This document shows positions 4,326-58,653 of a DNA stretch of 64,000 nt, one piece after another. This DNA comes from an uncultured Methanosarcinales archaeon (lineage in GTDB: Archaea; Nanobdellota; Nanobdellia; Woesearchaeales; UBA12501), in assembly GCA_964459835.1 (NCBI GenBank), contig CAYWPA010000001.1, positions 110,957 to 174,956 on the forward strand. The letters run 5' to 3'. The notes below the pieces were generated by a model. It saw only the letters and a list, made by a program, of their open reading frames with translations, had not been told where the DNA came from and ran no database searches. Made by a program: the position numbers and the translations under genes. The first letter of the stretch is position 1. Every line of letters begins with the position of its first letter.

Positions 4326-4571
4326 TTACAATACTTTTTTCATAGTTATAGAAATGAGCTTGGCCGCCGCAACAACAGACCACACTGCATTAAGGATTAT
4401 AAAAATCCATGAGTTAAGTGAGTAGGCATAAAAGATCAATGACCCTGAGCCAATCAAATTCAGAATATTGTAGGAAATGGAGTTTTCGTCTACCTTATCC
4501 ATCTCATTAAGAAGAAATGCTGTCAACAAAAACATCAATCCTGTGGTTCCGATTAGTGTTGGAAGCTCCAT
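4326..4571 (-). CDS. Small membrane protein (hypothetical)
   Basis: 81-aa ORF with 2-3 TM helices. A TATA-containing palindromic 26-mer lies about 40 bp upstream of its start. Confidence 0.35.
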   Translation of the reverse strand: MELPTLIGTTGLMFLLTAFLLNEMDKVDENSISYNILNLIGSGSLIFYAYSLNSWIFIILNAVWSVVAAAKLISITMKKVL

Positions 4572-4611: not shown

Positions 4612-4637
4612 TATTTATTTTCTATATAGAAAATAAT
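4612..4637. repeat. 26-nt repeat tatttattttctatatagaaaataat containing the perfect 16-bp palindrome TTTTCTATATAGAAAA (copy 1)
   Basis: Identical to 5824-5849; TATA-box-like core. Confidence 0.8.
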
Positions 4638-5554: not shown

Positions 5555-5763
5555 TTTTGTTTTTACTCTTATTTTACTTAGTTTTAGCTATTAAAAGCAC
5601 TTTTAATGCCTTTTTAGCATAAATAAGGCTGTTTAAGCCTTGTTTTCTCTTTCTACCACCACAAACCCTGCTTAAGATTTAGTATGTAGAAGGCACAGTT
5701 TCTTTATAAAGTTTTTGGTTTTTTAGTATTGGTTGGTAGTAAAAATTAATTAAAAATCCTGAA

Positions 5764-5790
5764 GAGACCCCCATCATTTCCTTTGGAAAT
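5764..5790 (-). promoter_or_regulatory. Origin recognition box (ORB) candidate a
   Basis: The reverse complement reads TTTCCAAAGGAAATGATGGGGGTCTC. This matches the archaeal ORB architecture: TTCCnnnGGAA dyad, short spacer, GGGGGT G-string. Confidence 0.55.
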
Positions 5791-5823
5791 TTACATAGAA
5801 GATTTTAAGATGTTTATTTATTA

Positions 5824-5849
5824 TATTTATTTTCTATATAGAAAATAAT
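5824..5849. repeat. 26-nt repeat, copy 2 (inside the putative origin DUE)
   Basis: Identical to 4612-4637. Confidence 0.8.
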
Positions 5850-5884
5850 TAATTAATAATGATATACTTTTCTCTTCTATGGAG

Positions 5885-5907
5885 TTCCATATGCAACAAA
5901 GGGGTCT
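5885..5907 (+). promoter_or_regulatory. ORB candidate b (inverted relative to a)
   Basis: TTCCATATGCAACAAAGGGGTCT, close to the Pyrococcus-type ORB TTCCAGTGGAAACGAAGGGGT. Confidence 0.55.
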
Positions 5908-6070
5908 GTATAAAAGAAAATAAACAAAAAGCTAAAAAAACAGAATTAAAACACAAATAATAAAAAACCATATACAGCAAAAACTATCCTGCTAAATCTA
6001 TTCCAAAATATATATTTTACAAAACAAGTGCATTTATTAAATAAAACCCACAACAGCCTTATACCTATGT

Positions 6071-6098
6071 TTCTTATGGAGATAAGGGGTGGGGGGTG
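6071..6098 (+). promoter_or_regulatory. ORB-like element c (G-string GGGGTGGGGGGT) immediately 5' of the cdc6 start; could alternatively be a Shine-Dalgarno-like element
   Basis: TTCTTATGGAGATAAGGGGTGGGGGGTG ends 5 nt before the ATG of orc1/cdc6. Confidence 0.35.
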
Positions 6099-6102
6099 TT
6101 AG

Positions 6103-7308
6103 ATGGAGCAGCTATATGATTTATTTCAGAAGTATATCAAAAACGAGCCTATTTTTAACGATAAAAAAGTTCTGCAGGCAAACCACACACCTGAAATCAT
6201 CACCCATAGGGAAAGGGAAATAGAGCAAATAGGCAAAGCTCTTGCTCCTGCTTTAAGGCAGCAAAAGCCATCAAACTTATTTTTATACGGCAAAACAGGA
6301 ACAGGCAAGACACTGTCTGCACTCTACACAACAAAAAAGCTGAAAGAGATTGCAGAAAAAGAAAAAATACCTTTGAATGTCATATACATAAACTGCAAGC
6401 TCAAAAAACAGGCAGATACAGAGTACAGGCTAGTAGCGCAGATAGCAAGAGCTTTAGGGAAAACAATCCCAATAACAGGCCTTCCTACTGATGAGGTTTA
6501 CAAAACTTTTTTTGAGGCAATTGACCAGAAAGAGCATGTTTTTATTTTGATACTGGATGAGATAGATCAATTGGTGAAAAAAACAGGCGATGAGATTCTT
6601 TATAATCTGACAAGAATAAACTCAGAATTAAAAAAAGCACAGGTCTGCATTGTTGGCATATCAAATGACCTGATTTTTACTGAAAATCTAGACCCAAGGG
6701 TAAAATCATCTTTGTCAGAAGAAGAAATTATTTTTCAGCCTTACAATGCAATGCATCTGCAGGATATTTTGAGGGAAAGATCCAAAAGAGCGTTTAAGGA
6801 AAACGTTCTTGAGCATGGTGTTATAGAAAAATGCGCAGCATATGCAGCAAGAGAGCATGGAGATGCAAGAAGAGCTTTGGAGCTTTTGAGGGTTGCAGGA
6901 GAATTGGCAGAAAGGGAAGGCTTGGAAAAGGTTGAAATCAAGCATATAGATGAGGCAGAGGACAAAATAGAAAAGGAGCGTGTATTTGATATTGTACTGC
7001 TGCAGCCAAAGCAGTTTCAGCTGACACTTTACTCTATATTAACACTCCACAAAAAAACAAAAGGCACAATCTTCACAGGGGATGTTTACGAAATCTACGA
7101 AAGCCTCTGCAAAAAGACATCAGTAAGACCATTGACCCAGAGAAGGATATCAGATATAGTTGCAGAGCTTGATATGCTCGGCATAATAAATGCAAGGACC
7201 ATATCAAAAGGAAGGTATGGGAGAACAAGGGAGATAAGCGTTGCAATACAGCACTCAATCGAGGAAAAAATAAAGGAAGCTTTGGAAAAAGACCTAGGAC
7301 TGATATGA
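6103..7308 (+). CDS. cdc6: Orc1/Cdc6 replication initiator
   Basis: Walker A (LYGKTGTGKT) and Walker B (ILILDEID) in an AAA+ fold, plus a C-terminal winged helix; 401 aa. Confidence 0.9.
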   Translation: MEQLYDLFQKYIKNEPIFNDKKVLQANHTPEIITHREREIEQIGKALAPALRQQKPSNLFLYGKTGTGKTLSALYTTKKLKEIAEKEKIPLNVIYINCKLKKQADTEYRLVAQIARALGKTIPITGLPTDEVYKTFFEAIDQKEHVFILILDEIDQLVKKTGDEILYNLTRINSELKKAQVCIVGISNDLIFTENLDPRVKSSLSEEEIIFQPYNAMHLQDILRERSKRAFKENVLEHGVIEKCAAYAAREHGDARRALELLRVAGELAEREGLEKVEIKHIDEAEDKIEKERVFDIVLLQPKQFQLTLYSILTLHKKTKGTIFTGDVYEIYESLCKKTSVRPLTQRRISDIVAELDMLGIINARTISKGRYGRTREISVAIQHSIEEKIKEALEKDLGLI

Positions 7309-8915
7309 TGCAGGAAACATTAACAAAAAAAAGAATAATTGATTTCTTTTTAGACAAAGGAATATTGCTAAGCAGCGACTTTGTTGATAGCCTTCAGCAG
7401 GACATCAATCTAGACAGCTTCTATGATTTTCTAAAGTCAAAAGTTGGCGAAGACTTTTTGGTTTTCAACAAAGACGTTGTAGGCCTTCTTAACACAAATG
7501 AAAAAATAGACCTGAACTGGAAAGACTTTGAAAAGATGAAGGCGTTGCAGGAAAACGGCGAAAACCCTTATTTATACTATGATTTTATCAACAGGCAGCA
7601 GCAAAAAGATGAAAAAGAAGAAGTTTCAGGTGAGCAAGGAACTGTTGTTATGAAGGCTCTTTACAAAACAAAAGAAAAAAAGTTTGAAACAAAAGATTTT
7701 GTTGCGCACTTCAACAAAAGGTTCGAAGCTTTAAAAAAACTGCTTCAAAACAGGCAGGAGCTTCAAAACACAACATCGATAAACAGGCTCTCCTCAAAGG
7801 CAGAAAGAAGCAAAGTTTCAATTATAGGGATTGTTCTGGAAAAAAACGAGACTGCAAATGGCAACATCCTTCTTTCACTTGAAGACCCAACTGGAGTTAT
7901 TAATGTTCTTGCAAACAAAAATAATCCAGAGATTTACAATATGGGCAAAGAAATAGTGCTTGATGAGGTGATAGGCTTGACAGGCACTTTAGGAAACAAA
8001 ATTATATTCGCAGACAGCATACTTTTTCCAGACATTCCGATAAACTCAGAGATGAAAAAATCCGAGGATGAGGTATATGCTATCTTTCTTTCAGATATAC
8101 ATTTTGGAAGCACCAAATTTCTGCATGAAGAGTTCGGCAGGTTTATCAAATGGATTAATGGAGAGCTCGGCAGCGAAAAGCAGCAAAACATAGCAAAGAA
8201 AGTCAAGTATGTATTTGTAGTAGGCGATATGGTTGACGGGATAGGGGTTTACCAGGGTCAGGAAAAGGAATTAACAATAAAAGATATCTCTGAGCAATAC
8301 ACAGATGCAGCAAATTGGCTGAAAAAAATTCCAAAAGACAAGAAAATAATTATTTGCCCCGGTAATCACGACGCAATGAGAATATCAGAGCCTCAGCCAC
8401 TGATAGATAAGAATTATGCAAAAGACCTCTATACAATGGAAAATGTAATAATGGTTACTAATCCAGCACTGATAAACATTCATTCTTCTGAAAAATTTTC
8501 AGGAATCGATGTATTAATGTATCACGGGTATAGCTACGACCATTATGCAGCAAATGTTGATAGCATAAGGGAAAAAGGAGGGTATGACAGGGCAGACCTT
8601 ATCATGAAATTTCTTTTGCAAAGAAGGCACCTAGCGCCTACCCATTCATCTTCGCTATATATTCCTGACCCTGAAAAAGACAGCTTGGTTATCGAAACAA
8701 TACCAGATATCTTTGTCAGCGGCCATATCCATAAAGCAGCAGTTAAAAACTACAGGAATGTAACAACTATTTCAAGCAGCTGCTGGCAGGCCAAAACCTC
8801 TTTCCAGGAGAAAGTAGGCCATCATCCAGAGCCCGCAAGGCTGCCAATAGTCAATCTGCAAACAAGGGAAGTTAAAATTATGAGGTTTGACAGCCCGGAA
8901 AATGAAGGAAAATGA
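7305..8915 (+). CDS. polD1: DNA polymerase II (PolD) small subunit DP1
   Basis: Calcineurin-like phosphoesterase motifs (FLSDIHFGS, VVGDMVDG, PGNHDA, GHIH) after an OB-fold N-terminus. Its ATGA start overlaps the cdc6 stop. Confidence 0.85.
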   Translation: MMQETLTKKRIIDFFLDKGILLSSDFVDSLQQDINLDSFYDFLKSKVGEDFLVFNKDVVGLLNTNEKIDLNWKDFEKMKALQENGENPYLYYDFINRQQQKDEKEEVSGEQGTVVMKALYKTKEKKFETKDFVAHFNKRFEALKKLLQNRQELQNTTSINRLSSKAERSKVSIIGIVLEKNETANGNILLSLEDPTGVINVLANKNNPEIYNMGKEIVLDEVIGLTGTLGNKIIFADSILFPDIPINSEMKKSEDEVYAIFLSDIHFGSTKFLHEEFGRFIKWINGELGSEKQQNIAKKVKYVFVVGDMVDGIGVYQGQEKELTIKDISEQYTDAANWLKKIPKDKKIIICPGNHDAMRISEPQPLIDKNYAKDLYTMENVIMVTNPALINIHSSEKFSGIDVLMYHGYSYDHYAANVDSIREKGGYDRADLIMKFLLQRRHLAPTHSSSLYIPDPEKDSLVIETIPDIFVSGHIHKAAVKNYRNVTTISSSCWQAKTSFQEKVGHHPEPARLPIVNLQTREVKIMRFDSPENEGK

Positions 8916-11900
8916 AGCAGGAAAGTGAAGAGATACAGGAATACTTCAACAGCATAAGCTCAGAGCTGAAGAGTGCTTATGAGGTAGCAAAGGAAGCAAG
9001 AAAGCTTGGCCTGGACCCAGAGAATAAAGTAGACATACCTATAGCCAATAACATGGCAGAGAGAGTAGAAGGGCTCATATCAGCAGATTCTCCTGAGCTG
9101 CTTGGCACAGGGCTTACAAAAAGGATACAGGAGCTGGAAGACAAGTATGGTGCATTGGCATGGGAAGTTGCAATACAGATTGCACTTGAAGTTGCACAGG
9201 AAAAGTTCTGCAAATTCAAAAGCAAAATAAAAGCAATGGAAACAGGAATAAGGACAGGAATGGCTTACTCCACTGCAGGAATTGTTTCAGCACCTTTAGA
9301 AGGGTTCGTAGAGCTAAAAATAAAGAAAAGGCTGGATGGGAAAGAATATTTTGCACTAAGCTATGCAGGCCCAATAAGAGGTGCAGGTGGAACAGCTGCA
9401 GCATTCTCGGTAGTTATTGCAGACTGCATAAGAAAAAAGATGATGTACGAAACCTACGATCCAACAGAGCAGGAAGTGAAAAGGTTTGTATCAGAGCTTT
9501 ATGATTATCATGAAAGGGTTACCAATCTTCAGTATCTTCCTTCTGAAGAAGAAATTGAATTTTTAGCAAAGCATCTCCCAATCGAAATTGATGGCGAACC
9601 AACAGAAAAGTTTGATGTTTCAAACTATAAAGATTTGCCCAGGGTTGAGACAAACAAAATAAGAGGAGGTGTTTGCCTGGTCATGGGGGAGGGGGTTGCG
9701 CAGAAAGCAGCTAAGCTGTGGAAGAGGCTGCAAAAATGGGAAAATGAATTTAACATTGACTGGGGATTTTTAAAAGAATTCCTAGAGCTGCAAAAAAGAA
9801 TAAAGGCAAAGCAGGAAAAAGAAGAAAAACAGGAAAAAATAATGCCGAACTACACATACATAAAAGACTTAGTTGCAGGAAGGCCAGTCTTAACCCATCC
9901 GATGAGAGCAGGCGGCTTTAGATTAAGGTATGGAAGAACAAGAACTACAGGCTTTTCGTCATCTGCAATAAACCCTGCATTGCAGCACGTGCTGAACAAA
10001 TACATAGCAACAGGAACTCAGCTAAAATTAGAAAGGCCAGGCAAGGCAACAGCAGTTACCATATGCGAAAACATTGAAGGCCCTATTGTAAAGCTTGAAA
10101 ACGGAAATGTTGTTCAGCTCTCAACAACAAAAGAAGCATATGACAGCGTACCAAACATAAAAGAAATACTTTTCCTCGGCGATATTCTTATAAGCTACGG
10201 CGATTTTTCCGAAAACGGCCACTGCCTTATCCCACCGGGCTATTGCGAAGAATGGTATGCGCAGGAATTTGAAAAGGCATGCGTTGATATCTTCGGCTCA
10301 CTAGATTTAGATAAAATTTCCTCCAATATTGAGATTTCAGCTGATAGCCTTAAGCATTTTTTGAGAGAACCTATAATAAATATTTTTGACTTTCAGGAAT
10401 CTTTTCATATTTCACAAAAGCTTGGCATTCCTCTGCACCCAAAATATACTTACCATTGGAATTTAATAAAGCCAGAGCAGCTGCTTGATCTTACAGGCTG
10501 GCTGAATCATGCAAAGTTTGATATAACAGACAGGCTTCAAAAAATAATTCTTCCAATGGATGAGAGAAAAAGAATTCTTGAGCTGATTGGGCTTCCACAT
10601 ATTGTGGCAACAGAATATGTTGTTGTTGAAAAAGACCACGCTCAGAGCCTATTCACTTCTTTAGGGAGAAGCGAGAATATGGAAAGCATAAAGGAAAAAA
10701 TATCAGAGCTCATAAAAGAAGGAAAAGGAACGCTGGAAATAATAAATTTGCTTTCTCCAATAACAATAAGGGATAAGTCAGGCATATTTATAGGCGCAAG
10801 AATGGGCAGGCCTGAAAAGGCCAAAATGAGGAGGCTTACAGGCCAGCCGCATGTCTTATTCCCTGTTGGAGATGAAGGCGGAAGGCTAAGGTGCTTTCAG
10901 TCAGCTCTTGAGGCAGGCACAATAAGCTCTGTTTTTCCAGTATATTTTTGCGCCAAATGCAGAAAAGAAACCATATATGGGGTTTGCGAGGAATGCGGTG
11001 AAACAACAGAAAAAAGGCACTATTGCAGGGAGTGCGGAATTATGGAAAAAAAAGAATGCCCAAGACATGGCCCATGCACGGATTACAGGCCGTATAGTAT
11101 AGACATAAAGCACTACTTCACAAGCTCATTAAAAAAGCTAAATATGGCAACTTTCCCAGACTTAATCAAAGGGGTGAAGGGAACTTCCAACAAAGACCAC
11201 GTGCCTGAAAATATAGCAAAAGGGATTCTTAGAGCGAAGCATGATATTTATGTAAACAAAGACGGAACAACAAGATATGATATGACAGAGCTCCCAATAA
11301 CACATTTTAAGCCAAAAGAAATAGGAACACCGGTGCGCAAGCTTAAAGAATTAGGCTACAAAAAAGACATAAAAGGAAAAGAGCTTGAAAGCGAAGACCA
11401 GATTTTGGAAATAAGGCCACAGGATGTAATTCTTCCAGGAAGCGCAGCAGGCTTAGCAGAGAGCGCAGACAATGTTTTGTTTAGGATTGGGCAGTTTATC
11501 GATGAGCTGCTGGCAAAGATCTACAATAAGGAGCCTTATTATAATTTTAAGGCAAAAGAAGATGTCGTAGGATGCTTGGTCATAGGCCTTGCACCGCATA
11601 CTTCTGCAGGAATAGTTGGAAGGGTGATTGGATTCTCCCAGACCCAAGGGTTTTTTACGCATCCGATGTTTCATGCGGCAATGAGAAGGGACTGCGATGG
11701 GGATGAGGCATGCGTGATCCTTCTTATGGATGCCCTGCTTAACTTTTCAAGAAAATATTTGCCAGACAAAAGAGGAAGCAGGACAATGGATTCTCCTCTT
11801 GTTCTTACAACGAAATTAGTCCCAGCAGAAGTTGATGATATGGTTCTAGGGCTGGATATTGTAAGCAAATACCCATTGGAATTTTACAAAGCAGCTATGG

Positions 11901-12448
11901 AGCTAAAATACCCATGGGAGGTTGAAATAGAGCAAGTTAAAAAAAGGCTAGGAACCCCAGGGCAGTATGAAGGGTATGGATTTACACATGATGTTTCAAA
12001 CATAAATGCAGGAATTCCTTGCTCAGCATACAAAACACTCCCTTCTATGGAAGAAAAGCTAAAAGGGCAGATGGACCTGGCTGAAAAGATAAGAGCCGTA
12101 GATGCAAAAGAGATTGCAAGGCTTGTAATAGAAAAGCACTTCCTAAAAGACACAAGAGGAAACCTAAGAAAATTCTCAATGCAGCAATTTAGATGCAGCA
12201 AATGCAATGAAAAGTTCAGGAGGCCGCCCTTAGTTGGGAAATGCACAAAATGCGGTGGAAATTTAATGTTCACAATTTCAGAAGGGTCTATAATAAAATA
12301 CCTGAAGCCTTCAATAAGCCTCGCCGAGAAATACGACGTTGATCCGTATCTCAGGCAGGTTCTGGAAATAACCCAAAAAAGGGTTGATGAGGTTTTCGGA
12401 AAGGAAAAAGAAACTCAATCAGGCCTGGGAAACTGGTTTAAAACATAG
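8912..12448 (+). CDS. polD2: DNA polymerase II (PolD) large subunit DP2
   Basis: 1178 aa with DP2-typical Zn-binding clusters (CAKCRKE…CEECG; RCSKCNEKF…CTKCGG). Overlaps the polD1 stop by 4 bp; no intein. Confidence 0.9.
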   Translation: MKQESEEIQEYFNSISSELKSAYEVAKEARKLGLDPENKVDIPIANNMAERVEGLISADSPELLGTGLTKRIQELEDKYGALAWEVAIQIALEVAQEKFCKFKSKIKAMETGIRTGMAYSTAGIVSAPLEGFVELKIKKRLDGKEYFALSYAGPIRGAGGTAAAFSVVIADCIRKKMMYETYDPTEQEVKRFVSELYDYHERVTNLQYLPSEEEIEFLAKHLPIEIDGEPTEKFDVSNYKDLPRVETNKIRGGVCLVMGEGVAQKAAKLWKRLQKWENEFNIDWGFLKEFLELQKRIKAKQEKEEKQEKIMPNYTYIKDLVAGRPVLTHPMRAGGFRLRYGRTRTTGFSSSAINPALQHVLNKYIATGTQLKLERPGKATAVTICENIEGPIVKLENGNVVQLSTTKEAYDSVPNIKEILFLGDILISYGDFSENGHCLIPPGYCEEWYAQEFEKACVDIFGSLDLDKISSNIEISADSLKHFLREPIINIFDFQESFHISQKLGIPLHPKYTYHWNLIKPEQLLDLTGWLNHAKFDITDRLQKIILPMDERKRILELIGLPHIVATEYVVVEKDHAQSLFTSLGRSENMESIKEKISELIKEGKGTLEIINLLSPITIRDKSGIFIGARMGRPEKAKMRRLTGQPHVLFPVGDEGGRLRCFQSALEAGTISSVFPVYFCAKCRKETIYGVCEECGETTEKRHYCRECGIMEKKECPRHGPCTDYRPYSIDIKHYFTSSLKKLNMATFPDLIKGVKGTSNKDHVPENIAKGILRAKHDIYVNKDGTTRYDMTELPITHFKPKEIGTPVRKLKELGYKKDIKGKELESEDQILEIRPQDVILPGSAAGLAESADNVLFRIGQFIDELLAKIYNKEPYYNFKAKEDVVGCLVIGLAPHTSAGIVGRVIGFSQTQGFFTHPMFHAAMRRDCDGDEACVILLMDALLNFSRKYLPDKRGSRTMDSPLVLTTKLVPAEVDDMVLGLDIVSKYPLEFYKAAMELKYPWEVEIEQVKKRLGTPGQYEGYGFTHDVSNINAGIPCSAYKTLPSMEEKLKGQMDLAEKIRAVDAKEIARLVIEKHFLKDTRGNLRKFSMQQFRCSKCNEKFRRPPLVGKCTKCGGNLMFTISEGSIIKYLKPSISLAEKYDVDPYLRQVLEITQKRVDEVFGKEKETQSGLGNWFKT

Positions 12449-12490: not shown

Positions 12491-12913
12491 CTATATGATT
12501 GATTTTACCGAGTGCTTTGCCCCGCACGCCATGCACATGACAAAAGCCAGATTTTTCTCTTTTATCATTTTTGTATCAGGCTTTCCGCATTCGCTGCACA
12601 GGACAAACTCATTTGCATACTTCTGTATTTTTTCATTTATTTTTGAAGCAGGAACTTTTGTTTTAAGTATAAGCTGATTGTTCCTTATATCCCCAGGTGT
12701 TGCTAGCTCCTTTAGTGTATACTTAAGAAAATGGTCAATTGGCCTTTGGAGATGATTTCCTATCTGGATAAAGTTGCTTACAACTGTTTTGTTCCCCTCT
12801 ATATGCCCCTTTACATTAGGGATTTCAAACCTCTGCTTTTCCTTTGCGCTTTCAGGCAGCTCTTTTGTTGCCTTGTCAAGAAGGCTCTCATAATCTGCAT
12901 TTTCATTTTTCAT
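12491..12913 (-). CDS. eif2b: Translation initiation factor aIF-2 beta subunit
   Basis: C-terminal C4 zinc ribbon (CSECGKPDT…CMACGA) and conserved eIF2-beta core. Start chosen at MKNENADY… rather than the upstream in-frame M. Confidence 0.75.
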   Translation of the reverse strand: MKNENADYESLLDKATKELPESAKEKQRFEIPNVKGHIEGNKTVVSNFIQIGNHLQRPIDHFLKYTLKELATPGDIRNNQLILKTKVPASKINEKIQKYANEFVLCSECGKPDTKMIKEKNLAFVMCMACGAKHSVKSII

Positions 12914-12992
12914 AGCTTCAAAGAAAAGCAAGCCGTTTTTAAATCTATCTAAAAACAATAAATTTATATATGTAAAAACCGGAAAGTTTAGC

Positions 12993-13847
12993 ATGGTTCT
13001 GGAGTCAATTATAAGCCCGATATCAGCCGAAAAAAAGCCTTGGAAAATGTTCTTTATAGGCCTGCTTTACTCTTTGGTTGCAGTTTTCATAAGCGTACAG
13101 ATTTTCAATGAAATGGCAGGGCTAATATCTGTTTTTTTAATTGTGATGGCATCAATCCCATTAATTTACAGGACAATAATCATGGAGGAAAAAAAAGACA
13201 TGCATCCAGTGGGAGAGGCAACGCTGTTAAAAGAGCATTCAAAAGCACTGTCTTTTTTCATAATGCTGTTCTTGGGAGTGTTTGCAGGATATACTTTGAC
13301 CTATATATTTCTTCCAGCAGAAACAATAAATAGCATCTTTTCAATTCAGATAAACACTATAAAAAACATAAACAGCAACATAGTGATAGGGAGCGCAAGC
13401 CAGAACTATACTTTATTCACAAAAATATTTTTCAACAATGTGAGGGTGCTTATCTTCTGCATACTTTTTGCATTCTTCTATGGTGCAGGCGCCATATTTA
13501 TCCTTACATGGAATGCATCTGTGATAGCAGTTGCTACAGGCACATTCTTCAGAAACAATATATCGGCCATCACCTCTTTAGTGGGTTTTGACAAGATAGC
13601 AGGATATTTTTCAGTTGCTTCAATGAGCCTGCTGCGGTATATGGTGCACGGCGTGCCTGAAATTACTGCCTACTTTATAGCAGGCCTTGCAGGAAGCATA
13701 ATATCCGTTGCAGTAATAAGGCACGATTTCTCCTCAAGCAACTTTGAAAGAATCTTAGTAGACACTGTCGACCTTATACTTATATCAATAGCAGTCTTGT
13801 TTTTTGCAGCAACATTAGAGGTATTTGTCACCCCTTTGCTATTCTAG
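12993..13847 (+). CDS. Integral membrane protein (about 6 TM; possibly SpoIIM/DUF95-like)
   Basis: 284-aa hydrophobic ORF; family assignment is weak. Confidence 0.4.
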   Translation: MVLESIISPISAEKKPWKMFFIGLLYSLVAVFISVQIFNEMAGLISVFLIVMASIPLIYRTIIMEEKKDMHPVGEATLLKEHSKALSFFIMLFLGVFAGYTLTYIFLPAETINSIFSIQINTIKNINSNIVIGSASQNYTLFTKIFFNNVRVLIFCILFAFFYGAGAIFILTWNASVIAVATGTFFRNNISAITSLVGFDKIAGYFSVASMSLLRYMVHGVPEITAYFIAGLAGSIISVAVIRHDFSSSNFERILVDTVDLILISIAVLFFAATLEVFVTPLLF

Positions 13848-14519
13848 AACCTTAACCCTCCCCGGCTTTATCTCAAAAATATCCCCGCGCATAAGAAGCC
13901 TGTTTATTATGGCCTCGGCATCGCTCTTTGCATCGCTTTTTTTTGATTTAGAAATAATATCTTCAATATCCACACCATTTCCTGAGTCAAGGCTTTTTAT
14001 TATTTTTATTATGCTTTCTGAGGTGCTGTTATCATATTCATCCTTTTTTCCAACAATCTCTTTAGCATGCTCATTTTTTTCTTCTGTTTTGCTTCTTTCA
14101 TCTTTTTTATTTTCTAATTCATATTCTATCTTTGGCGCACTCTTAAAAATATTTTCAAGCTCTTTTTTTCTAACTTCAGCCCATTTTTTATCGTTTATTT
14201 TTTTTATTATTTCAATAACTAAAAATATCTGCCCATTGAACTCTCTTGGCCTGCCGACAAAAACAACCATATCTCCCACATTAGCCTTATCAAAAAAAAT
14301 GTTTTCATCAAATGCTCTTGCTGTTATTTTTCCGCTTCCATCGTCAAGAACAACGCTTCCATTGGTTTTATCAACAACACCTGCAATTATATTTGCTCTG
14401 GAGATCTTTCTTCCATTGCAAAGGATATGGTTTGGCTCCCACCCCTCATTCACAATATATTTTCCAGAGAGCAGGCTGCCTATATCTGTTTTATAAGCAG
14501 TTTGCCTGTCCTGCTGCAT
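13839..14519 (-). CDS. OB-fold nucleic-acid-binding protein with C-terminal winged helix (RPA32/Rpa2-like), immediately downstream of mcm
   Basis: OB-fold core (…GDMVVFVGRPREFNGQIFLVIE…) plus the C-terminal motif …INRLLMRGDIFEIKPGRVKVLE. This resembles the MCM C-terminal winged helix (…IEKLKRSGDIFEPRPGMFRRL). Confidence 0.45.
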   Translation of the reverse strand: MQQDRQTAYKTDIGSLLSGKYIVNEGWEPNHILCNGRKISRANIIAGVVDKTNGSVVLDDGSGKITARAFDENIFFDKANVGDMVVFVGRPREFNGQIFLVIEIIKKINDKKWAEVRKKELENIFKSAPKIEYELENKKDERSKTEEKNEHAKEIVGKKDEYDNSTSESIIKIIKSLDSGNGVDIEDIISKSKKSDAKSDAEAIINRLLMRGDIFEIKPGRVKVLE

Positions 14520-14521
14520 TT

Positions 14522-16540
14522 TTACAGCCTCCTGAACATTCCAGGCCTAGGCTCAAAAATATCACCTGACCTCTTCAGCTTCTCTATGATCTCTTCAGTC
14601 CTTTCTCTTGAAATATTCTTTTCCTCTGCTTTCTTTATAATATCTTCAGCAGGTATCGCTTTTCCTATCATCTTTTCAAGGTCTGATATAATATCTTTTA
14701 TTGTTATGATCTGGCTTCTCTGTGAAGCTGATATTCCTGTCGATATCATGTCAATGTCTATTTTTCCTGTTTTCTCATCCATGCTGACTTGGGTCAGGCA
14801 GTAAGCAATAAGGTCAATTGCCCTTTTTGTATCTTTTTTTGTAACCTTTTCAGACAGCCTTGATTTTGCAGAAGCCTCTGAAAGCCTTATCAAAGCTTCA
14901 AGCTGCCTTGCTGTAATAGGTATTATTCTTACTCCTCCTTCTTCCACCCCAGTTGCCCTCATAGAAACATAATAATTTTTTATTTCTTCAATAGCGTCTT
15001 CTGTCAATGTGGGAAAAATATTTCTTCTTGCGTAAGCAACATACTTTCTAAGCAAATCTGTCTCTATTTCTGCTTCTCCTACTTCCTCATGCTTATGCAA
15101 ATCAAGAATAAAAGAAGCTGTTTTTTCATCATGCTCTTTGTTCGGCAAATCTTTTATAGGGAATAATAAGTCAAACCTGTTTATCAAAGTTGCAGGCAAT
15201 TCAATCTGCTTTGCAACAACATCATAAGGGTTAAACCTTCCAAGCTTTGGGTTTGCTGCAGCAAGCACAGTTGTCTCGCATCTTAACGTTGCCTGTATAT
15301 TTGCCTTGCTTATGCTTACAGTCTGCTGTTCCAAGGCCTCGTGCATCGCGCTTGCATCCTCCTTACTCATCTTGTCAAGCTCATCAATCATGCAAAACCC
15401 TCTGTTTGCCAATACTAAAGCTCCTGCTTCCAAAGCCCAGCCTTTAAGGAATTCATCCCTTACAACAGCGGCAGTTAATCCAGCTCCGCTTGCCCCCTTT
15501 CCGGAAACAAACCTTGACTTAGGAGCAACAGACTTTATTCTCCTAAGCAGCTGGCTCTTTCCGCTTCCAGGGTCTCCAATAAGAAGGATGTGCATATCCC
15601 CTCTTATCTGAACGCCATCTTTCCTTTTTTTCTGCACGCCTCCAAGCAGCTGAAGTAGAATAGCTTCTTTGATTTTTTCATATCCATAAATTGAAGGTGC
15701 AAGGGACTTCACAAGAATCTCATAAACTCTTGGGTCTTTTGACAGCTCAATTATTTTTTTCTTATCTTCATCATCTATTTGCAGATTCATGTAATCTTCA
15801 TCAACACCATCAACAAAATTTGTGTCAATCATCAGGTCAAACCTTATAGACTGTCCACCTGTGTTTAGCGTTATAGGGACTTCCTTTACAATTCCATTTA
15901 TCATAATCTTGCTGCCAGGGTTTGTCTTTTTATCCTCTAAAGGGCTTACCAAATCCTGCTTCAGCAGTATATCCATTCTCTTTGGCTGCTCCCCTCCTTC
16001 CAAGTCATCCGGAGACTCCTCAAGAACAATCCTTTGTACATCAACAAGCTCCTTTCCAAGAAGCTTGAACTTTCCCTTTCTTCCGCAGCCGCATCTTGAA
16101 GGCTCCCTGAATTTCTGCTCCAGCTGCAAAACAGACAAAACATTGCCGCAGCTTGGGCATTCAAACCTTGCAGTTGTTACCTGCGGCCTTACATCCGATT
16201 TTTGCCTTACTATTCCCTGCGTGAAGATAAGCTTTCCAATCTGCTTGCTTCTCACATCCCTCACCATAATTTTCTGGCTTTCCGGAAGATTTGAGAACCT
16301 AATCCTGAAGTTCTTTGCCTTATTATCAACATCAAAGTCATCTACCGCGAGCTCAGCAGCCTTTATGACCTCTTCAGGCTCTTCCAGAAGATTGTCTGCA
16401 AGCTCAGGGTCAAACTTTGCAAGCTGGGCAAAGTCAATTGCAAGAAAATTCTTTCCCATTCTTACATTCTCAAGAAGCTCAGCATATTGATTAGCTTGAA
16501 TATATTCTCTGAATCTTTTAATCTGTTCTATTGAATCCAT
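14522..16540 (-). CDS. mcm: MCM replicative helicase
   Basis: Walker A IGDPGSGKSQLL, Walker B CMIDELDKM, zinc finger CPSCGN…CGCG and C-terminal winged helix; 672 aa, no intein. Confidence 0.92.
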   Translation of the reverse strand: MDSIEQIKRFREYIQANQYAELLENVRMGKNFLAIDFAQLAKFDPELADNLLEEPEEVIKAAELAVDDFDVDNKAKNFRIRFSNLPESQKIMVRDVRSKQIGKLIFTQGIVRQKSDVRPQVTTARFECPSCGNVLSVLQLEQKFREPSRCGCGRKGKFKLLGKELVDVQRIVLEESPDDLEGGEQPKRMDILLKQDLVSPLEDKKTNPGSKIMINGIVKEVPITLNTGGQSIRFDLMIDTNFVDGVDEDYMNLQIDDEDKKKIIELSKDPRVYEILVKSLAPSIYGYEKIKEAILLQLLGGVQKKRKDGVQIRGDMHILLIGDPGSGKSQLLRRIKSVAPKSRFVSGKGASGAGLTAAVVRDEFLKGWALEAGALVLANRGFCMIDELDKMSKEDASAMHEALEQQTVSISKANIQATLRCETTVLAAANPKLGRFNPYDVVAKQIELPATLINRFDLLFPIKDLPNKEHDEKTASFILDLHKHEEVGEAEIETDLLRKYVAYARRNIFPTLTEDAIEEIKNYYVSMRATGVEEGGVRIIPITARQLEALIRLSEASAKSRLSEKVTKKDTKRAIDLIAYCLTQVSMDEKTGKIDIDMISTGISASQRSQIITIKDIISDLEKMIGKAIPAEDIIKKAEEKNISRERTEEIIEKLKRSGDIFEPRPGMFRRL

Positions 16541-16573: not shown

Positions 16574-17113
16574 TCACTTAACCTTTTTCAGGTTAGCAAT
16601 TAGCTTGTCTAGTGCTTCATGAACTTCTTCTTCGCTTTTAGTTCCTGTGCAAACTACTTTTCCGTTGCTGAAAAGAAGGAATGTAGCCTTTGCCTCAGGC
16701 AGCTTGTAAACAAGTCCAGGAAATTGTTCAGGCTCATACTCTGTGTTGTCAAGCTTCATTGCAAGCTTGTTTAAGTTTAAGTCCATTCCGACTCCCCCTG
16801 AAGCTACTATGTTCTGGATCTTGATCTCTGGCTTTACAGTAATCTTGACATTGATCTTTTCAAGGCTCTTTATAATCTGCTTGATGCTTTCCTCTACTTT
16901 TTCAAGAGTTCTGGCGCCTGTGCAGACTATTTTGCCAGAAGAAAATATCAAAGCAGTTGTTTTCGGGGCTTTAATCCTTATTACAAGCCCTGGAAACTGC
17001 TCTGGATTATACTCTGTATTGCTAAGAGTTGCTGCCATCTTTTCAAGCGGTATATCGTGCTCTAAAGAGGCTGAAACAACAATATTTACTACTTTTATGT
17101 CTTGTTTCATCAT
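16574..17113 (-). CDS. tbp: TATA-box binding protein
   Basis: Two imperfect TBP repeats (…NIVVSASLEHDIPLEKMA…EYNPEQFPGLV… x2); 179 aa. Confidence 0.9.
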   Translation of the reverse strand: MMKQDIKVVNIVVSASLEHDIPLEKMAATLSNTEYNPEQFPGLVIRIKAPKTTALIFSSGKIVCTGARTLEKVEESIKQIIKSLEKINVKITVKPEIKIQNIVASGGVGMDLNLNKLAMKLDNTEYEPEQFPGLVYKLPEAKATFLLFSNGKVVCTGTKSEEEVHEALDKLIANLKKVK

Positions 17114-17217
17114 TTTACTACCCCCACACTAAATTTAAGATTTATTTTAAAAGCATTTAAATTATTTATAAATAAAGTAATCATTTATAAATACTTTGGT
17201 TTAAATACTGTTTATAT

Positions 17218-17562
17218 ATGAAAATAATTAATAAAACCCGTAATACTGTTGTTGCAGGCAGTTTTAGGACTTTTAAAGGCATTCTAGGCAAGACCATAGG
17301 CCTTATGTTCAGCCTTAAGCCAAAAACTATCGTTTTTGAATATGCTGCTGAGAGAAAAGTACCCCTTCACATGGTATTTGTTTTTTTCCCAATCGATGTT
17401 ATGTATGTTGATGCAAAAAAGAAAGTTGTGGAAGCGGCAAGCCTCAAACCATTCACTTTTTATAATCCGAAAAGAAAGTCAAAGTTTGTGATAGAACTTC
17501 CTTATAATTCCACTAAAAAGAGCATGACAAAAATAGGTGATATTATTGCATTTGAAAGTTGA
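17218..17562 (+). CDS. DUF192/COG1430-family protein
   Basis: 114 aa; the pattern …GLMF…PLHMVFVFFPIDVMYVD…IELP… is typical of DUF192. Confidence 0.45.
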   Translation: MKIINKTRNTVVAGSFRTFKGILGKTIGLMFSLKPKTIVFEYAAERKVPLHMVFVFFPIDVMYVDAKKKVVEAASLKPFTFYNPKRKSKFVIELPYNSTKKSMTKIGDIIAFES

Positions 17563-18169: not shown

Positions 18170-18320
18170 GGGGACGTAGTATAACCTGGCTAGAATGGCT
18201 GGCTCCAGTTATGGAGCGATGAGCTGCAGAACACTGTAGCGATGATTGCAGCTATGGTCTGTTGAGGCGTTGCTTCAAAGAAGAGACCAGCAGATGGGGG
18301 TTCAAATCCCTCCGTCCCCA
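18170..18320 (+). tRNA. trnW: tRNA-Trp (anticodon CCA) with a 77-nt intron (18209-18285) at the canonical 37/38 position
   Basis: Acceptor stem GGGGACG/CGTCCCC with discriminator A; U8 A9 G10; D-loop AACCTGGCTA. Anticodon stem GCTGG (18198-18202)/CCAGC (18287-18291); loop C-U33-CCA-G37. T-arm GGGGG-TTCAAAT-CCCTC. A TATA-like ctttaaatacc lies ~30 bp upstream and a T-tract follows the 3' end. The D-stem is weak (G10-U25, A12·A23). Confidence 0.6.
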
Positions 18321-58011: not shown

Positions 58012-58264
58012 CCTTGAATTTTCTTTCCAGCAATTCGAATGCCTTTTCTCCTGCTTTATGCAAATCTTCATCTGATGTTCTTCTTTTTGAAAAACCTTTC
58101 AGTTGAGCTAGATTTTTTAACACTTCATCCTTTTCCAAATCAGAAAGCTTTTCGCGTATGGCCTCCCTTATAAACTCTGTCCTTGTGCTGTACCTATACC
58201 TAGCCAGATTCTCGTCTATTTCTTTCAGAAGGCTGTCTTCTATCTTCAGGCTTATCGTTTCCAT
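58004..58264 (-). CDS. Ribbon-helix-helix (CopG-like) protein, convergent with the PIN gene
   Basis: N-terminal beta strand (METISLKIEDSLLKEIDE) then two helices; 86 aa. Overlaps the 3' end of the PIN gene by 8 bp on the opposite strand. Confidence 0.45.
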   Translation of the reverse strand: METISLKIEDSLLKEIDENLARYRYSTRTEFIREAIREKLSDLEKDEVLKNLAQLKGFSKRRTSDEDLHKAGEKAFELLERKFKAK

Positions 58265-58332
58265 GGTACTACTAAGTATTATTAAGTAATATATAAATTT
58301 TGCTGTTTTTTGTTCTTTCAGAAATGGTCACC

Positions 58333-58632
58333 TTAGTGAAGAGTGGAATTTCTCTCGATAATAGCTTCCAGCTTTTCAAAGAGTTTTTCTGCGTCTATTT
58401 CAGGCATCTGAACACGGCTTATGTTAAATATGCCGGCTTCATGGCTTTGTATCTCTTGTCCTGTTGCTATCCTATGACCTTCTTCTAATATAACAGGGGA
58501 GCTAATATCTACATATTTTCCTGTAGAATCTTTTGAAACAGCAACATGCTCTCTCGGGATGTATATTATTCTAGTTGAAACAGGTTCTTCTCCGGTTTTA
58601 ATAGTATATCTGGTAAAGTATATCAGCTCCAT
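58333..58632 (-). CDS. Hypothetical protein (99 aa) at the end of the 2-oxoacid dehydrogenase operon
   Basis: ORF of coding-like composition with no recognised motif. Confidence 0.35.
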   Translation of the reverse strand: MELIYFTRYTIKTGEEPVSTRIIYIPREHVAVSKDSTGKYVDISSPVILEEGHRIATGQEIQSHEAGIFNISRVQMPEIDAEKLFEKLEAIIERNSTLH

Positions 58633-58653
58633 AGAAATTAGAAATAATTAAGC

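Follow-up and report, generated by a model that had tools for sequence, protein, structure and literature searches.

Where does chromosome replication begin in an archaeon of the Woesearchaeota (DPANN)? The question is raised by a 64-kb stretch of contig CAYWPA010000001.1 from this lineage, here called the window, in which a long intergenic gap precedes an orc1/cdc6 initiator gene and the genes for both subunits of DNA polymerase D (PolD). A preliminary description of the window had placed an origin of replication (oriC) directly upstream of orc1/cdc6, and this placement is supported by the adjacency to the initiator gene, by inverted origin recognition boxes (ORBs) around the least stable DNA of the window, by the Orc1-1 type of the encoded protein and by conservation in related genomes. 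From this sequence evidence we consider it very probable that the gap is the oriC1-type chromosomal replication origin of the source archaeon, an origin whose type is conventional for archaea. No DPANN replication origin is known to have been characterized, and no ORB-level description of an origin in this group was found in the literature searched; a 2026 preprint rotates 208 complete Nanobdellota genomes to ORC1 (bioRxiv 10.64898/2026.05.13.725050).

Three ORBs and an unstable AT-rich stretch precede orc1

To locate ORBs we used a 24-nt position matrix built only from the orc1-upstream regions of 26 related loci, with the window itself excluded; a seed chosen by eye was iterated until the matrix comprised 58 unique sites, with the consensus TTTCCATAYGAAAYnAAGGGGT. 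When the 128,000 positions of the window were scored with this matrix, ORB-b ranked highest at 26.5 bits, followed by ORB-c at 22.5 bits and ORB-a at 21.0 bits, and the fourth-best match in the 64 kb reached 12.5 bits (coordinates of all features are given in Table 1). The top three of all positions thus fall inside 320 bp. Across 220 kb of related loci, matches of at least 14 bits are likewise confined to the 1 kb upstream of orc1, save for two distinct sites, each of them found in one pair of duplicate loci. A degenerate ORB pattern matches the window three times, against 0.57 expected, and two of these three matches lie in the orc1 gap.

Scores from the dyad half of the matrix place the boxes beside sites of known function. 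The ORB-c and ORB-a dyads are the best and second-best in the window, at 17.6 and 16.7 bits, and only 4 of the 128,000 positions score at least 14 bits. On the same scale the Pyrococcus furiosus ORB1, ORB2, ORB3 and mini-ORB oligonucleotides, which are bound by Cdc6/Orc1 in electrophoretic mobility shift assays (EMSA; PMC1904270), score 13.4-15.0 bits, and the Sulfolobus solfataricus mini-ORB employed in Orc1-1 binding studies scores 14.9 bits, whereas the published control, ORB1 mutant, random and Orc1-3 (C3) oligonucleotides range from -8.7 to +1.8 bits (oligonucleotide sequences were taken from PMC1904270 for P. furiosus and PMC3089459 for S. solfataricus).

ORB-a and ORB-b are inverted, with both dyads pointing into the AT-rich stretch between them, a predicted duplex unwinding element (DUE). 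By nearest-neighbour energy no other 60-mer in the 64 kb is as unstable as the core of the DUE (5813-5872, 92% A+T), and among the 100-mers of the window 5781-5880 ranks second in instability. Another AT-rich spot, at 17113-17218, was considered as an origin and rejected; its 105 bp form the divergent promoter gap of the TBP gene and a small gene and are devoid of an ORB match.

The strings quoted in the preliminary description are all present in the sequence. Its ORB-b, TTCCATATGCAACAAAGGGGTCT, is found on the plus strand at 5885-5907 as described; its ORB-a, TTTCCAAAGGAAATGATGGGGGTCTC, is the reverse complement of 5764-5789, and only the end coordinate (5790) lay one base too far. The length of about 95 bp reported for the AT-rich stretch agrees with the 94 bp found here, while "nearly pure A/T" slightly overstated its composition. 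The third element had to be reassigned. A G-run had been taken as a third G-string; the plus-strand ORB reading that uses this run scores 7.5 bits and was rejected in favour of the 22.5 bits of the minus-strand box ORB-c, which is the conserved element. The G-run itself, GGGGTGGGGGGT, ends 5 nt ahead of the orc1 ATG, is missing from most relatives and is not conserved; the TBP gene has a resembling GGGGGT before its own ATG. With GGTG at 5 nt from the start codon, this G-run probably serves orc1 as its Shine-Dalgarno sequence, and the TATA-like TTTATTAAATAAAA is the probable orc1 promoter, judged by its sequence.

Table 1. Features of the orc1 gap and of the genes around it (window coordinates).
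Feature	Position	Strand	Description
Second palindrome copy	4612-4637		exact 26 nt; just past 3' end of TrmBL2-like gene
TrmBL2-like winged helix-turn-helix protein gene, 265 aa	4757-5554	-	divergent from orc1 across the gap; Pfam TrmB
Intergenic gap before orc1	5555-6102		548 bp; second longest intergenic gap in window
ORB-a TTTCCAAAGGAAATGATGGGGGTC	5766-5789	-	dyad 5776-5789 toward DUE; G-string 5766-5771 distal
DUE (predicted)	5790-5883		94 bp, 85.1% A+T; between two inverted dyads
Palindrome TATTTATTTTCTATATAGAAAATAAT	5824-5849		26 nt; core TTTTCTATATAGAAAA at 5830-5845
ORB-b GTTCCATATGCAACAAAGGGGTCT	5884-5907	+	dyad 5884-5897 toward DUE; G-string 5901-5905 distal
A-rich spacer	5908-6058	+	56% A on plus strand
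TATA-like TTTATTAAATAAAA	~6033-6046	+	inside A-rich spacer, upstream of ORB-c
ORB-c TCTCCATAAGAAACATAGGTATAA	6059-6082	-	dyad 6069-6082; short AGGT instead of full G-string
G-run GGGGTGGGGGGTG	6086-6098	+	abuts ORB-c dyad; GGGGTGGGGGGT = 6086-6097
orc1/cdc6, Orc1-1-type initiator gene	6103-7308	+	Pfam Cdc6_C, Cdc6_lid, AAA
PolD DP1, small subunit gene	7305-8915	+	co-oriented with orc1; Pfam
PolD DP2, large subunit gene	8912-12448	+	co-oriented with orc1; Pfam
"RPA32-like" gene	13839-14519	-	OB-fold match sub-threshold, 25.1 bits vs cut-off 27
MCM gene	14522-16540	-	Pfam
TBP gene	16574-17113	-	~10.5 kb away from the orc1 gap

The encoded initiator is of the Orc1-1 type

The window Orc1 reaches 519 bits against the ORC1-type equivalog model of NCBIfam (cut-off 501), and its best matches in the PDB are Sulfolobus Orc1-1 (2qby_A, 8.6e-102) and Aeropyrum ORC1 (2v1u_A, 1.1e-97), the two initiators that were crystallized on ORB DNA. 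Orc1-3 (2.4e-43), Pyrobaculum Cdc6 and Aeropyrum ORC2 are all far behind. Mutation of G120/L121 in the initiator-specific motif of Orc1-1, of R341 in its helix-turn-helix or of R365 in its wing weakens mini-ORB binding (Table 1 of PMC3089459), and in an alignment these residues are conserved in the window Orc1 as G126/L127, R347 and R371, respectively. The encoded initiator is thus of the Orc1-1 type, with its predicted DNA contacts conserved. Its closest relatives (64-70% identity) carry the names Woesearchaeota or Nanoarchaeota, and ORC1 is reported among the single-copy core genes of Nanobdellota (bioRxiv 10.64898/2026.05.13.725050).

The layout is conserved in related loci

To examine conservation we gathered 27 related loci, drawing on collections of genomes and metagenomes and on look-ups of identical proteins; 22 of these are non-redundant, with Orc1 proteins 61-70% identical to that of the window. 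Most of the 22 loci with enough upstream sequence show the order minus-strand ORB, AT-rich stretch, plus-strand ORB, minus-strand ORB, ATG. Box by box, a minus-strand ORB is present at the ORB-a position in relatives whose contigs extend that far, a plus-strand ORB is present at the ORB-b position, and a minus-strand ORB is kept 16-99 nt before the orc1 ATG in most relatives. The elements share order and orientation across independent lineages whose flanking DNA is unalignable, and they stay with orc1 in two loci (L004 and L020) despite a different upstream gene. Conservation of the ORB-like sequences in relatives, which the preliminary description had named in advance as the ground on which its proposal could fail, is therefore borne out.

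Some loci show additional elements. L026/L027 have an additional strong ORB (22.9 bits, minus strand) at about 3508, -1493 from orc1, beyond the TrmBL2-like gene and between that gene and a Hjc resolvase gene, and some lineages thus have origin-type elements on both sides of the TrmBL2-like gene. The L001 group has a second dyad (TTCCTAAGGAA) beyond the G-string of the left ORB, for example at 5478-5525 of L001, so that one G/C-string is common to two dyads (...TTCCTAAGGAAGTATTACTCCCCTACCCCTAAATTTCGTATGGAAA...); the window is without an equivalent. Five of the public records of metagenome-assembled genomes (L002, L003, L006, L009 and L011) are titled "Methanosarcinales archaeon", taxon labels that look wrong; their Orc1, TrmBL2-like, DP1 and DP2 proteins are 39-66% identical to those of the window, and their gene order and origin layout are the same.

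Alternative explanations of the boxes

Each half of an ORB is a common string when taken by itself: TTCC/GGAA dyads and GGGGT strings are individually frequent, and GGGGTCT occurs five times in the window against 2.9 expected. A chance resemblance in AT-rich intergenic DNA is nevertheless effectively refuted, both by the confinement of the top three matrix positions to 320 bp and by the scores of known Orc1 sites relative to their controls, and it would also have to account for elements whose order and orientation agree between independent lineages with unalignable flanks; we give it practically no credence. The repeats could also be sites for the TrmBL2-like regulator, or for another transcription factor unrelated to Orc1, as most loci keep the TrmBL2-like gene as the divergent neighbour of orc1 and dyad-symmetric sites are bound by dimers of winged helix-turn-helix (wHTH) proteins. 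We regard this as very unlikely, because the repeat is built asymmetrically like an ORB, from a dyad plus a G-string, because it matches experimentally defined Orc1 sites of two other phyla and not their mutated controls, and because L020 has ORBs without a TrmBL2-like gene in the 3 kb upstream of its orc1.

A further explanation accepts Orc1 as the ligand and takes the boxes as mere operators for orc1 and the divergent gene, with replication starting elsewhere or without a fixed origin. Binding at ORB-c, 21-44 nt 5' of the orc1 ATG, would affect transcription, and Orc1-family proteins can act as regulators, as is reported for Orc1-2 (PMC9738581). Thermococcus kodakarensis, moreover, has a canonical oriC and Cdc6 and is reported to replicate without either in the laboratory (PMC5663688). 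Two full ORBs set in inverted orientation around the window's least stable DNA are, however, the geometry of an origin and would serve no purpose in an operator. The protein is also of the Orc1-1 and not the Orc1-2 type (1fnn, 1.2e-23 and 1w5s, 9.6e-20, compared with 1e-100 for Orc1-1), and since ORC1 is reported as a single-copy core gene in the phylum, a separate initiator paralogue is not expected. Autoregulation and origin function can coexist, and we consider an operator role to the exclusion of origin function improbable.

Four observations weigh against the reading of the gap as an origin. The T. kodakarensis case implies that a canonical origin sequence does not prove use. The spacing of the inverted ORBs is not conserved, being 94 bp in the window and about 100-380 bp in relatives, so that a neat MCM-palindrome-MCM geometry (see below) cannot be general. 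The G-string lies 5 nt nearer to the dyad in the window than in Pyrococcus ORBs (TTCCAGTGGAAATGAAACTCTGGGGGG). Lastly, and weakly, the cumulative G-C minimum is found at 22.6 kb and not at the orc1 gap, where the curve makes only a local dip (5.5-6.1 kb). This minimum coincides with the end of a 4.9-kb minus-strand gene, and per-kb GC skew tracks the coding strand throughout (r = 0.86); because the coding strand dominates and just 5.5 kb of sequence is left of the site, GC skew is uninformative in this window.

A conserved palindrome lies in the middle of the unwinding element

The DUE contains a palindrome that the preliminary description had overlooked, as it had the syntenic TrmBL2-like gene. 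It is previously undescribed and is the only new element of this origin. Its centre (5837.5) and the midpoint of the two inverted ORBs (5836.5) differ by no more than 1 bp. Of the 22 non-redundant related loci, 19 have a single match to the core pattern TTTWCWATATWGWAAA upstream of orc1 when one mismatch is tolerated, in most cases 244-300 nt ahead of the ATG, and 232 kb of other sequence contain just two; L018 and L020, two more divergent loci, lack the palindrome. When each flank-distinct lineage carrying the palindrome was represented by a single locus, it was kept in 10 of 10, compared with 0.046 expected from shuffles, and core identity is 86% in pairs whose flanks share just 38%. In the window, L004, L025 and L026 the centre of the palindrome deviates by no more than 3 bp from the midpoint of the inverted ORBs, and in other lineages it deviates by 30-60 bp.

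An exact second copy of the 26 nt is found beyond the TrmBL2-like gene (Table 1); 41 nt separate it from the ATG of a downstream minus-strand gene (4326-4571) for an 81-aa membrane protein of the CBU_0592 family. These two sites are the only occurrences of the 16-mer core in the window even when two mismatches are allowed (0.06 expected). L016 has a one-mismatch core at an equivalent offset, -1482 from orc1 as compared with -1485 for the second copy of the window.

Within the core, positions 5 (C) and 12 (G) and the central ATAT are fixed across lineages, positions 4 and 13 usually vary symmetrically (TTTTC...GAAAA or TTTAC...GTAAA), and positions 6 and 11 vary without compensation. A hairpin or cruciform is disfavoured, the single-strand DNA fold amounting to only -6 kcal/mol (z = -2.1), and this weak fold together with the uncompensated positions 6 and 11 fits a site for a dimeric protein better than a cruciform. 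A promoter for one of the flanking genes was also set aside; the palindrome lies about 265-285 nt from the ATG of either gene, and both have nearer TATA-like candidates. Although some role in non-coding transcription is conceivable, the palindrome is most likely a docking site at which a dimeric accessory protein would bind midway along the putative origin.

The TrmBL2-like neighbour as a candidate ligand

Wherever a locus extends far enough upstream, a TrmBL2-like gene is the divergent neighbour of orc1 on that side, with two exceptions: in L004 it has the same orientation as orc1 and lies 1.2 kb upstream, and in L020 no such gene is found within 3 kb upstream and a PRC-barrel protein and LonB are encoded instead. 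The window protein aligns over its full length to the TrmBL2 structures 5bpd and 5bqt (1.2e-19). It also aligns almost end to end with the TrmBL2 equivalog model NF041141 (residues 13-264 against 13-262 of 264); the score of 84 bits, far under the cut-off of 530, makes it TrmBL2-like and not an equivalog by the NCBIfam criterion.

We hypothesize that this protein may bind the palindrome, on the basis of synteny and of one co-absence: among the loci, L020 is the single informative negative, lacking both palindrome and gene. The wHTH is essentially invariant across loci, and co-variation of its recognition helix with palindrome variants is for that reason uninformative. T. kodakarensis TrmBL2 is reported to be a chromatin protein (PMC3031468) and occupies AT-rich sites in vivo (PMC11840125). 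The TrmBL2 of Thermococcales, a chromatin protein, global repressor and roadblock to SMC, has the same architecture of wHTH plus C-terminal domain as the window protein; unlike the window gene, its gene is without report as an origin neighbour. We know of no specific palindromic target for Thermococcales TrmBL2.

Gene neighbourhood and other features of the window

The orc1, DP1 and DP2 genes form an operon-like row on the plus strand. Pfam confirms all three, and with them the resemblance to the Pyrococcus orc1/cdc6-polD order on which the preliminary description had drawn. The order is kept in related loci, some of which have an additional gene between DP1 and DP2, and the longer arrangement TrmBL2-like/orc1/DP1/DP2 recurs across relatives; linkage of cdc6 and DP1 beside the origin is a known euryarchaeal pattern (PMC2643942). 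MCM, an RPA32-like gene and TBP had also been said to lie within 10 kb. MCM is confirmed by Pfam, TBP is slightly more distant, and the RPA32-like gene has only a sub-threshold OB-fold match (Table 1). A gene for aIF2-beta (12491-12994, minus strand) lies near MCM, and an eIF-2B-family gene and TFE are found just left of the origin gap, a placement that fits the archaeal linkage of replication and translation genes (PMC2643942).

Two further observations concern the window at large. An Rfam tRNA match of 42 bits on the plus strand covers the full 71-position model and spans 151 nt (18170-18320); ARAGORN finds no tRNA in the window, and the match is probably an intron-containing archaeal tRNA. 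The longest gap between open reading frames of at least 100 aa is located at 58012-58653 (642 bp).

A model for initiation and its implications

By analogy with Sulfolobus, Aeropyrum and Pyrococcus, one Orc1 monomer would bind each ORB with fixed polarity, its winged helix on the TTTCC-N3-GAAA dyad and the initiator-specific motif of its AAA+ domain on the G-string side. ATP-bound Orc1 at ORB-a and ORB-b would then recruit two MCM hexamers onto the intervening DNA, where the roughly 39 bp on each side of the palindrome correspond to about one MCM hexamer footprint, and the palindrome itself would most likely hold the dimeric accessory protein proposed above. Bidirectional replication would start between ORB-a and ORB-b, and the TrmBL2-like gene to the left and orc1-polD to the right would both be transcribed co-directionally with the forks. 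As ORB-c overlaps the likely promoter or leader of orc1, Orc1 probably represses its own gene.

For Woesearchaeota origins the analysis supplies an explicit ORB consensus, a conserved three-box layout and coordinates that can be used for anchoring genomes, for estimating growth rates from peak-to-trough coverage and for designing binding assays. The conventional character of the predicted origin shows the reach of the oriC1/Orc1-1 module across archaea, and the conserved palindrome with its TrmBL2-like neighbour is the part that could matter more. If the palindrome is indeed the site of an accessory factor, a second, independently evolved, sequence-specific chromatin-type protein would be built into an archaeal origin.

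Comparison with known archaeal origins

The gene order of the window is that of the Pyrococcus/Thermococcales origin (oriC-cdc6-dp1-dp2). The ORB dyad of Pyrococcus (TTCCAGTGGAAAT) is the same as that of the window, scoring 13.4-15 bits, and two long ORBs are likewise arranged as an inverted repeat around AT-rich DNA; these Pyrococcus boxes are bound by Cdc6/Orc1 in chromatin immunoprecipitation and EMSA (PMC1904270). Pyrococcus oriC has in addition many 13-bp mini-ORBs and a second ORB cluster within dp1, whereas the window has three strong boxes only and at most weak, unconserved dyads near the dp1/dp2 junction. Five such mini-ORB-like dyads (9.7-13.6 bits) are spread over 7872-9588, from the 3' part of dp1 into the beginning of dp2, compared with a background of about 0.55 per kb elsewhere in the window. 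They recall the Cdc6-bound ORB cluster within Thermococcales dp1, an equivalence that was rejected, as the dyads are weak and their positions and strands are unlike those of the weak matches in relatives.

The likeness to oriC1 of Sulfolobus/Saccharolobus extends to the layout of the core. There, too, inverted ORBs surround an AT-rich DUE directly upstream of an Orc1-1-type gene, the arrangement of ORB-a and ORB-b is that of ORB2 and ORB3, and the core measures 142 bp in the window, both ORBs included, compared with 130 bp for Sulfolobus ORB3-DUE-ORB2 (PMC12141716). The dyads are near-identical (lineage consensus TTTCCATAYGAAAC, Sulfolobus mini-ORB TTTTCAGATGAAAC). In Sulfolobus oriC1 one Orc1-1 monomer occupies each ORB with defined polarity, and ATP-Orc1-1 recruits MCM between them (PMC12141716). 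Sulfolobus has three origins, whereas ORC1 is a single-copy core gene of the phylum Nanobdellota.

Both origins, finally, have a short conserved element halfway between the ORBs. In Sulfolobus this is ucm, which is bound by UBP, an abundant sequence-specific nucleoid protein that touches the N-terminal tier of MCM; UBP is reported only in Sulfolobales and Desulfurococcales, and the authors ask whether lineages without it possess analogous factors (PMC12141716). The palindrome is not ucm itself, which it resembles in position and not in sequence: the 11 bp of ucm (12-mer probe ATTATACAAAAG) are asymmetric and bind UBP as a monomer, whereas the window element is a 16-22-bp palindrome, and TTATACAAAAG with up to two mismatches matches the window 58 times, against 50 expected, with no match in the DUE. 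It is possible, if rather doubtful, that the palindrome (TTA-TTTWCWATATWGWAAA-TAA) is the DPANN functional counterpart of ucm, needed for firing, with a dimeric protein, for which the TrmBL2-like neighbour would be the best candidate, held between two loaded MCM hexamers. Were this so, it would answer the closing question of PMC12141716 on lineages without UBP and would link a chromatin protein of the TrmBL2 family to replication initiation.

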